A stretch of 53,707 bases of DNA, the filler included, from Sphacelaria rigidula (lineage: Eukaryota): the NCBI GenBank assembly GCA_964200075.2. It is 5 parts of 5 records of this genome, joined end to end, with 100 filler letters (N's around TTAATTAATTAA, not from the genome) between each part and the next. Parts side by side here need not be neighbours in the genome. Positions count along the whole stretch, not along the records: positions 21,526 to 32,186 come from CAXNAA020006122.1; 4 more parts are not named here. The stretch is one strand, 5' to 3'. Below the pieces are notes generated by a model. It saw nothing but the letters and a program-made list of their open reading frames with translations. It was not told where the DNA came from and did no database searches. A program made the position numbers and the translations under genes. Positions 21,967 to 22,575 of the stretch are shown in pieces; position 1 is the stretch's first letter; each line of letters starts with the position of its first letter.

Positions 21967-22575
21967 TCATTGGAGGCACCAGGATCCCCGGCGAGCGGTC
22001 GGCACCTCGGTGTAGTAGGCATAATCCAAGCGAATCCTAAGGGGGCTCAAGTCATCGAGGAAACGGATGAAATAAGATTTGTCAGATGCAGGATCGACGA
22101 AATGAATATTACCCAATCGCCACCGTGAATCCAAGACCTTATACAAAAAATACGCCCCCTTCGGCAAACGCTGTCCGTGAAAAGACTGCATGTATTGTGA
22201 ACGCGAAAGGAGGCTATACCCTGCTACGACAAACCGCGCTGAGTGCTCACAAGCCAGTTCCTGAGCGGCAGCTCCCTTGCGCATAGATCCCTTGTGCATA
22301 GATCCATATATCTTATTCAACGGGCGGTGTTGGACGGCATCTCCTACCCAGTACAGCAATATATCCCGACGAAGATGACGCAAGTCAACTTCACGCTCCC
22401 ATGTAACACGCATGATACCCTTCCAATGTGTTTGATACATTACCGCTATCTTACCACCACGGCCGCAGACCAGTTGATGGCCCGAAATCCAATCTACCGC
22501 AACACGTTCCAGGGGTGCGTCCGCATCCTTGACCGTCATATGATACGGCGGAGTTTTGGTCGCATACTTGGTCAA
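21967..22575 (-). pseudogene. Integrase C-terminal extension: chromodomain plus Tudor/SH3-like barrel
   Basis: VDWISGHQ..IAVMYQTHWKG..VTWEREVDL fits the chromo pattern. KGAYFLYKVLDSRWRLGNIHFVD..SYFIRFLDD resembles a Tudor fold. Confidence 0.7.

Follow-up and report, generated by a model that had tools for sequence, protein, structure and literature searches.

A decayed Ty3/gypsy integrase from Sphacelaria rigidula with a predicted Tudor-like barrel behind a divergent chromodomain

Among natural cases of transposons that choose their landing sites, reader domains fused to integrase are the clearest. Chromodomains tether or target integration in chromoviruses; for HIV integrase, this role falls to LEDGF, a PWWP reader of the host. 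Chromoviruses are Ty3/gypsy elements with an integrase-chromodomain fusion, and their Pol ends at the chromodomain. Herein, we analysed a stretch of 53,707 bases (the window) from assembly GCA_964200075.2 of Sphacelaria rigidula, in which the minus-strand open reading frame (ORF) 21967-22623, open for 218 amino acids (aa), corresponds to the C-terminus of a decayed Ty3/gypsy pol gene. We consider it fairly probable that this stretch represents the integrase C-terminal end of a widespread brown-algal Ty3/gypsy lineage whose two-part tail tethers integration to chromatin.

Elements of this kind have been described in brown algae. According to part of the text of a 2025 paper on Ectocarpus transposable elements (PMC12477816), Ectocarpus has four Gypsy lineages, three with a C-terminal chromodomain and one with a C-terminal Tudor domain. 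One of the three chromodomain lineages is ECR-1 and another, for example Gypsy-12_Ec32, carries an N-terminal NADAR domain; the Tudor lineage is Gypsy-10_Ec32, called by its authors the first transposable element with a Tudor domain. The same text places the four lineages phylogenetically outside the chromoviruses, the chromodomain lineages being unrelated to chromoviruses and to Chronos. This placement weakens the comparison with chromoviral integrases that a preliminary description of our locus had drawn.

The tail ORF contains a chromodomain-like part at residues 38-91, and the frame runs about 126 residues beyond it. The preliminary description had reported an open extension of about 125 aa behind a chromodomain at 22348-22503, which was borne out with slightly different limits (22351-22512). 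The LPKGAYFLYKV...RIRL stretch occupies residues 153-199 of the tail ORF (about 22027-22167). The start of the ORF is a frameshift artefact, because the conserved RCKPC linker just upstream (motif at about 22640-22660) sits in another frame. Pfam returned no match for the window's own 218 aa, Chromo or Tudor included, even at E<=1, and either domain of the window tail becomes visible only by way of family profiles and folds. In intact relatives, the integrase zinc-binding domain, the catalytic core and a GPY/F-type region are followed by a tail that we would divide into five parts, namely the RCKPC linker, a divergent chromodomain, two helices, a Tudor-like barrel and a short conserved tail; the order of the domains and their conservation are observed, and the two folds are predicted.

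The conservation of the extension was assessed by a phmmer search of the 218-aa tail against 1.84 billion cluster representatives. This gave 400 matches at E<=1e-3, of which 172 had E<=1e-10 and 7 had E<=1e-30, far more than chance would yield; many matches reach the last residue of the query. Profile searches of longer proteins yielded 42 and 17, among them Pol proteins of 1.4-1.85 thousand residues with reverse transcriptase, RNase H and integrase ahead of the tail. When 200 stretches were aligned with a hidden Markov model, 43 spanned chromodomain and extension, 85 the chromodomain only and 16 the extension only. The one-domain rows are mostly short fragments, and six chromodomain-only proteins have more than 100 unaligned residues left. 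Both parts are present behind integrase domains in 31 proteins of at least 484 aa. The mean pairwise identity among 42 two-domain relatives was 0.59 (chromodomain), 0.42 (linker) and 0.48 (barrel), so that extension and chromodomain are conserved to about the same degree.

The best-kept motifs of the extension are LWWLGKI, VRFLDDPGP and GSWCLQ.H, and the barrel columns W197 (85/94), G200 (83/92), F216 (72/84), C244 (60/64) and H248 (56/61) are strongly conserved. A divergent subfamily (P0085, P0093, P0198-P0205), at about 20-30% identity, has the same order of parts; conserved across subfamilies are the hydrophobic core, a basic residue in strand 3 and a W-C...H motif in the last strand. The named relatives belong to brown algae, namely Ectocarpus sp. 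CCAP 1310/34, Nemacystus decipiens and, as gene models, Undaria. The tail family has hundreds of diverged members across several brown algae, and its module of about 190 aa is predicted to be compact and well-folding.

Two further features of the family were noted in passing. The conserved C-x2-C of the linker (RCKPC), together with the Cys (60/64) and His (56/61) in or after the last strand (21970-21990), might form a zinc site, which would tie the linker to the barrel; the RCKPC segment is disordered in the model of relative P0001 (predicted local distance difference test, pLDDT, <50). In addition, in the gene models P0147 (Nemacystus) and P0188 and P0191 (both Undaria), the tail module is fused with parts unrelated to it; in P0188, for example, 49% of the tail, at 68% identity, occurs beside kinase and cyclic-nucleotide-binding Pfam domains. 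These odd models could be chimeric annotations over transposon fragments, or captured or domesticated pieces.

The conservation data bear on the view that the extension has no function, being a chance frame, a read-through into 3' untranslated sequence or the decay product of one copy. The window copy is indeed dead, Pfam is blank in its tail, and the ESM Atlas scores of 0.75-0.80 are at noise level. However, the same motif order recurs in hundreds of relatives down to 20-30% identity, in 31 long proteins the extension lies behind integrase domains, and the AlphaFold2 models of the region are confident. Given the conservation, we regard this view as refuted; it is scarcely credible. Lack of conservation among family members, which the preliminary description had named as a fatal objection to a conserved reader tail, can likewise be set aside, since 400 representatives match, the barrel shows the identity given above, and the extension is also conserved in the divergent subfamily.

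The folds were predicted with AlphaFold2 for two sequences: the natural relative P0001 (273 aa, 60-sequence alignment) and the window's own last 125 aa (21970-22344, 42-sequence alignment). The P0001 model had a mean pLDDT of 80, a predicted template modelling score (pTM) of 0.69 and block means of 84-98 over about residues 70-260, with pLDDT >90 over about residues 70-255. Residues 78-128 form three strands and a helix, and residues 139-156 another helix; a short strand and helix follow at 166-177, then the five strands at 188-249 and, last, a short helix. The window model (mean pLDDT 83.5, pTM 0.71) has two helices and five strands as in P0001, with the barrel strands at residues 65-69, 75-83, 90-95, 102-105 and 122-124.

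The chromodomain of the P0001 model is composed of strands 78-88, 94-102 and 109-112 and helix 113-128, at pLDDT >90. Structure comparison by VIA-align against 48,161 chains, in which Z-scores of up to 7.3 fall in the range that the tool calls middling, paired P0001 residues 73-130 with Chp1 (Z 7.3, root-mean-square deviation (rmsd) 1.4 Å, 53/55 residues), HP1 (Z 6.9) and Polycomb (Z 6.2). The predicted structure has the three-stranded sheet on a C-terminal helix that defines the chromodomain fold.

For the barrel, ranks 1-20 of the Foldseek search with the window model were all PHF19 or PHF1 Tudor domains (E 4.4e-3 to 2.7e-2, probability 1.00), with a TM-score to target of 0.58-0.64, an rmsd of 2.0-2.4 Å over 46-48 columns and 27-33% identity; the MTF2 Tudor domain appeared at ranks 24 and 33 with 26% identity. 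A five-stranded antiparallel SH3-like barrel is predicted in both independent models, that of the window's 125 aa and that of P0001, so the Tudor/SH3-type barrel anticipated in the preliminary description was recovered. A family profile compared with PDB sequences found the Swi6 chromodomain (E 8.6e-4), three PHF19 Tudor constructs (E 0.009-0.012), the MPP8 chromodomain (E 0.034-0.038) and the PHF1 Tudor domain (E 0.5-0.7). The top 7 of the 17 rows of this comparison were all chromo or Tudor domains; a second alignment gave weaker values. Pfam assigned Chromo to 5 of 60 relatives (best E 2e-4), an SH3 family to 5, Agenet to 3 and PWWP to 1. Collectively, these results give good support to a Tudor-like barrel behind a chromodomain.

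Three other structural searches were made. An extended-Tudor (eTudor) reading of the helices plus the barrel was rejected as too weak: the eTudor rows covered 70-77 residues, but at an rmsd of 3.5-4.4 Å and Z 5.3-5.6. The ESM Atlas, queried with the window's last 125 aa and with P0001 residues 130-262, gave best scores of 0.80 and 0.78, which are at noise level; one row at 0.75, in which 48% of members carry a Tudor family, is a lead only. Foldseek against viral predicted structures (BFVD) returned nothing meaningful, only phage rows of high rmsd.

Several results weigh against calling the barrel a Tudor domain outright. Neither model had a Foldseek match at E<=1e-3, and the Pfam Tudor family was found in none of the 60 relatives nor in the window's own tail. 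All VIA-align Z-scores were 7.3 or lower, that is, middling, and the top three rows for the barrel model were TraI translocation-signal domains (Z 6.4-7.2), not Tudor domains. They were followed by the RDM15 Tudor domain (Z 6.2, 56/58), BAHCC1, a PWWP domain, TDRD3, PHF20L1, MTF2, PHF19 (Z 5.4, rmsd 2.0 Å, 52/57 residues) and SMN. Of the 50 rows listed, Tudor and other Royal-family domains account for 36 and other small barrels for 12, with 2 unclear, as assigned by title or by the protein concerned. Given the middling Z-scores and the TraI rows on top, the fold alone points to a small SH3-like barrel of Tudor topology.

The main rival explanation starts here. It supposes that the barrel binds nucleic acid or serves multimerisation within the intasome, as an additional SH3-like domain akin to the retroviral integrase C-terminal domain, and leaves any contact with chromatin to the chromodomain. 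The TraI domains, a PWWP domain bound to single-stranded DNA (Z 5.7) and the PcrA/UvrD Tudor domains among the matches agree with it, and the integrases of Rous sarcoma virus (RSV) and mouse mammary tumour virus (MMTV) occur among the weak Foldseek rows. It would also suit a barrel whose cage varies across subfamilies while the hydrophobic core, the strand-3 basic residue and the W-C...H motif are conserved. However, the integrase rows have an rmsd of 16-21 Å and a probability of 0.18-0.6, a GPY/F-type C-terminal region is already present upstream, and the sole sequence-level similarity of the barrel is to histone-reading Tudor domains. We judge this explanation unlikely, and the tethering of integration to chromatin by a two-part tail remains our preferred reading.

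What such a tail could recognise depends on its methyl-lysine cages, whose positions were compared by sequence alignment only, with Swi6 as reference for the chromodomain and PHF19 for the barrel. The chromodomain positions are those that we take to form the HP1 cage. A chromodomain cage consists of three aromatics (PMC11541908). In the family, the first position is Leu, Ile or Val (127/150), the Trp is kept (150/168) and the third position is Leu or Ile (145/171). The chromodomain thus appears to retain one of the three cage aromatics, which speaks against a three-aromatic cage. Plant group II chromodomains also lack the first and third cage aromatics.

The cage of the PHF1 Tudor domain is described, in part of the text of PMC7492083, as Trp41, Tyr47, Phe65 and Phe71, with Asp67, Ser69 and a leucyl patch. 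In the main subfamily, the equivalent of Trp41 is Ala, Ser or Gly, that of Tyr47 is Trp (75/93), that of Phe65 is Phe (72/84), that of Asp67 is Asp (70/83) and that of Phe71 is Pro (71/82), and Leu occupies two leucyl-patch positions. The window copy has Val, Arg, Phe and Pro at the four cage positions, one aromatic in four. In the divergent subfamily, Thr replaces Trp41, Gln replaces Tyr47 (10/10), Leu or Met replaces Phe65 (8/9) and the equivalent of Phe71 is non-aromatic. By this alignment, the four-aromatic cage of the Polycomb-like (PCL) Tudor domains seems to be missing: two of four aromatics are kept in the main subfamily and none in 8/9 divergent members. A canonical cage would therefore not be a conserved feature of the module. 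A partial PCL-like pocket (equivalents of Tyr47, Phe65 and Asp67, and the leucyl patch) is possible in the main subfamily, and other conserved aromatics nearby, W189 (81/104), Y190 (68/103) and Y212 (62/88) as well as Y232 and W243, might contribute to it. According to the same part of PMC7492083, a complete cage is required for efficient binding, which counts against binding by so reduced a cage, and MTF2, which lacks one cage aromatic, binds weakly.

These counts are what decides on the proposal of the preliminary description that the family carries two methyl-lysine readers, taken here as the possibility that both domains are true readers that jointly read a combination of marks for target-site choice. 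In its favour, both are Royal-family folds, and the barrel is 26-33% identical to the PCL Tudor domains, which read H3K36me3. The main subfamily also keeps the equivalents of Tyr47, Phe65, Asp67 and the leucyl patch, to which W189, Y190 and Y212 could be added to complete a pocket. Nevertheless, the chromodomain has one cage aromatic of three and the barrel two of four (one in the window copy), and nearly all members of the divergent subfamily (8/9) have none while keeping the whole architecture otherwise. MTF2, a single cage aromatic short, already binds weakly (PMC7492083, in part). The two-reader proposal is not upheld by these residues and seems quite improbable. Such degenerate cages are a warning against labelling tails of this kind methyl-lysine readers from fold alone.

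Since both domains lack most cage aromatics, recognition is probably not classical trimethyl-lysine caging by both. The partial PCL-like pocket leaves H3K36me3-type binding, in the main subfamily only, as the best single guess from the alignment. The two-part tail would tether the integration complex to chromatin and thereby bias target-site choice, and, by analogy with the integrase-fused and host readers introduced above, it probably does tether integration to chromatin or the nucleosome in this way.

The host gives this question its interest. In part of the text of PMC13076208, brown algae are described as lacking Polycomb repressive complex 2 (PRC2), H3K27 methylation and DNA methylation, with H3K9 methylation mostly undetected; H3K36me3 lies on expressed gene bodies, and H3K79me2 and H4K20me3 accompany repression. 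This chromatin toolkit is unusual. The brown-algal setting considered in the preliminary description, with no PRC2, little DNA methylation and repression linked to H3K79me2, agrees with that account and with the named relatives from Ectocarpus, Nemacystus and Undaria. The host marks fit a chromodomain that has lost its canonical cage, and they would make H3K36me3 the most natural guess for a PCL-like barrel. One could go further and suppose that the tandem Royal-family module was retuned after the host lost H3K9 and H3K27 methylation, PRC2 and DNA methylation, and that it now reads a brown-alga-specific state, either H3K36me3 gene bodies or H3K79me2/H4K20me3 silent chromatin, and steers integration there. 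We hold this idea to be rather unlikely; if true, transposons would have their first example of a targeting module with two readers, and the chromatin states of brown algae a natural probe.

The copy in the window belongs to a larger, decayed coding region (Table 1). By tblastn, residues 24-1838 of the full-length relative P0153 align to 27565-21910 in six high-scoring segment pairs (HSPs) in frames -1,-3,-2,-1,-3,-2, within which there are 16 in-frame stops and at least 5 frame changes. The Pfam domains RVT_1, RT_RNaseH, Integrase_H2C2 and rve follow each other in Ty3/gypsy pol order on the minus strand, collinear with P0153; the rve match (30.6 bits) is slightly below the 32.6-bit cut-off. 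By this order of reverse transcriptase, RNase H and integrase, the element is a Ty3/gypsy (Metaviridae) long terminal repeat (LTR) retrotransposon. The GPY/F-type WTGPYK motif that relatives carry in the integrase C-terminal region is degraded in the window copy.

Table 1. Features of the tail and of the decayed element, in coordinates of the window
Feature	Coordinates	Strand	Basis
Decayed Ty3/gypsy pol coding region, dead copy	21910..27565	-	tblastn of full-length relative P0153 (1848 aa)
Reverse transcriptase	25252..26370	-	Pfam RVT_1, E 5.4e-22
RNase H	24952..25173	-	Pfam RT_RNaseH, E 1.5e-17
Integrase zinc-binding (H2C2) domain and catalytic core	23243..24157	-	Pfam Integrase_H2C2, E 3.2e-11; rve, E 4.3e-7
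Integrase C-terminal region	22712..23242	-	aligns to P0153 987-1542 and P0187 795-1190
Linker with conserved RCKPC	22578..22829	-	three-frame translation; tblastn HSP P0153 1515-1609, frame -3
Divergent chromodomain (predicted), tail ORF residues 38-91	22351..22512	-	family profile and model of a relative
Conserved two-helix linker	22168..22350	-	helices at residues 19-33 and 48-55 of the window's own AlphaFold2 model
15-bp in-frame tandem duplication in the linker, 5 extra residues	22276..22305	-	adjacent 15-mers, 14/15 bases identical
Tudor-like five-stranded barrel (predicted), tail ORF residues 153-218	21970..22167	-	AlphaFold2, Foldseek and profile
Premature TGA stop	21967..21969	-	plus strand reads tca; relatives keep sense residues there
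Remnant of the natural C-terminal tail, 23 codons	21898..21966	-	read-through translation; tblastn HSP reaches 21910

Damage is also evident within the tail itself. The linker duplication is missing from P0153, which shows a 5-residue gap in the alignment. The premature stop falls in the conserved barrel end of the family, one residue before the conserved His; relatives continue for about 25 residues past this position, and the read-through remnant in the window is closed by a stop at 21895-21897. The window copy keeps 43 of the 51 columns of at least 80% conservation and has lost 8. With its frameshifts, 16 stops and premature stop, the copy is dead and has no function of its own now. As a side observation, in three of the eight lost columns Arg has become Cys or Gln, and the premature stop codon reads TGA; these changes fit CpG transitions, which would be curious if the host lacks DNA methylation, and the numbers are too small to go further.

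No direct repeat pairing the DNA past the coding end with upstream DNA was found that would mark LTRs, in a piece that ends about 370 bp after the natural stop (spacer at 21525); in the comparison of the downstream DNA with the piece and the window, only low-complexity C-runs and the spacer matched. A NADAR domain was not found in the window either, where P0187 aligns only from residue 204 and the upstream part of the copy is heavily decayed. No second tail copy was found in the window.

Five pieces of about 10.66 kb each make up the window, and the tail lies in the piece 21526-32186, which comes from CAXNAA020006122.1. The spacers between the pieces (10664-10763, 21426-21525, 32187-32286 and 42948-43047) consist of 44 N, TTAATTAATTAA and 44 N. 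Because these spacers are artificial, features on either side of a joint cannot be assumed to be neighbours. Another piece carries, at 9561-10592 on the plus strand, a second, related Gypsy pol fragment that reaches the spacer; it corresponds to the N-terminal region, P0153 residues 24-364, at 41% identity with 2 in-frame stops. Long poly-C tracts of up to about 60 C with few interruptions occur at 18334-18443, 21340-21365 and 32707-32771, two of the three being close to piece ends or an N run. Outside the piece with the tail, there is a palindromic self-match of about 930 bp at 250-1176 (91% identical) and an inverted repeat pair of about 1.7 kb formed by 32884-34623 and 34836-36518 (70% identical).

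The relatives link part of the family to the described lineages. The Ectocarpus relative P0187 has a Pfam NADAR domain at the Pol N-terminus (E 1.9e-40) together with the barrel, which is 54% identical to P0153 across 94% of the region, and P0206 also has a NADAR domain. At least part of the tandem-tail family is therefore the NADAR lineage. P0153, the closest relative over the full length, gave no NADAR match in Pfam. Tribonema proteins were absent from the word-filtered searches, and a barrel-only search of proteins of 1016-3234 aa gave 4 proteins, none from Tribonema, and so supplied no bridge to the published Tudor lineage.

Compared with known systems, the tail combines traits that have been met singly. 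Like chromoviruses, the family has a chromodomain at the integrase C-terminus that is presumed to target integration; chromoviral Pol, in contrast, stops at that domain. The brown-algal lineages are, moreover, placed outside chromoviruses and Chronos (PMC12477816, in part). ECR-1, the centromere-associated Ectocarpus Gypsy element, is likewise a brown-algal integrase-chromodomain fusion (PMC11541908; bioRxiv 10.64898/2025.12.07.692804), but it keeps all three cage aromatics (PMC11541908) and no second domain is described for it. The PCL Tudor domains (PHF1, PHF19, MTF2) are the best Foldseek match of the barrel and its only sequence-level match, sharing a D-G-L-aromatic-aromatic-L-G-K-I strand and an aromatic-x-D motif. 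They differ in being host PRC2 accessory proteins that bind H3K36me3 through four cage aromatics (PMC7492083, in part), of which the family keeps two at most, and their PRC2 partner is, by the part of PMC13076208 cited above, absent from brown algae.

Closest are the Ectocarpus lineages. The NADAR Gypsy lineage (Gypsy-12_Ec32) is also brown-algal Ty3/gypsy with a chromodomain fused to the integrase C-terminus; the relevant part of the text of PMC12477816 names a chromodomain only, with no second domain behind it. P0153 and the window copy show no NADAR domain. Gypsy-10_Ec32 resembles the family in fusing a Royal-family Tudor domain to a Gypsy integrase in a brown alga. By its description in part of PMC12477816 it is set apart as a separate lineage with homologues in Tribonema, in which the Tudor domain stands in place of the chromodomain, whereas here the barrel follows a chromodomain. 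In the portion of the supplementary Gypsy family table of that paper that bears on these elements, "C-terminal TUDOR domain" is remarked for Gypsy-10_Ec32 and no domain for the others. A tandem chromodomain-Tudor integrase tail was not found in a full-text literature search, in which PMC12477816 was the one pertinent paper; the figures or library of PMC12477816 may already show a second domain. The novelty suggested in the preliminary description consequently stands for the tandem form, which looks unreported, and falls for its components, as single chromodomain and single Tudor fusions to integrase have been published separately, in different brown-algal lineages. The conserved two-domain tail suggests a targeting logic beyond the single chromodomain or single Tudor domain of the Ectocarpus Gypsy elements.

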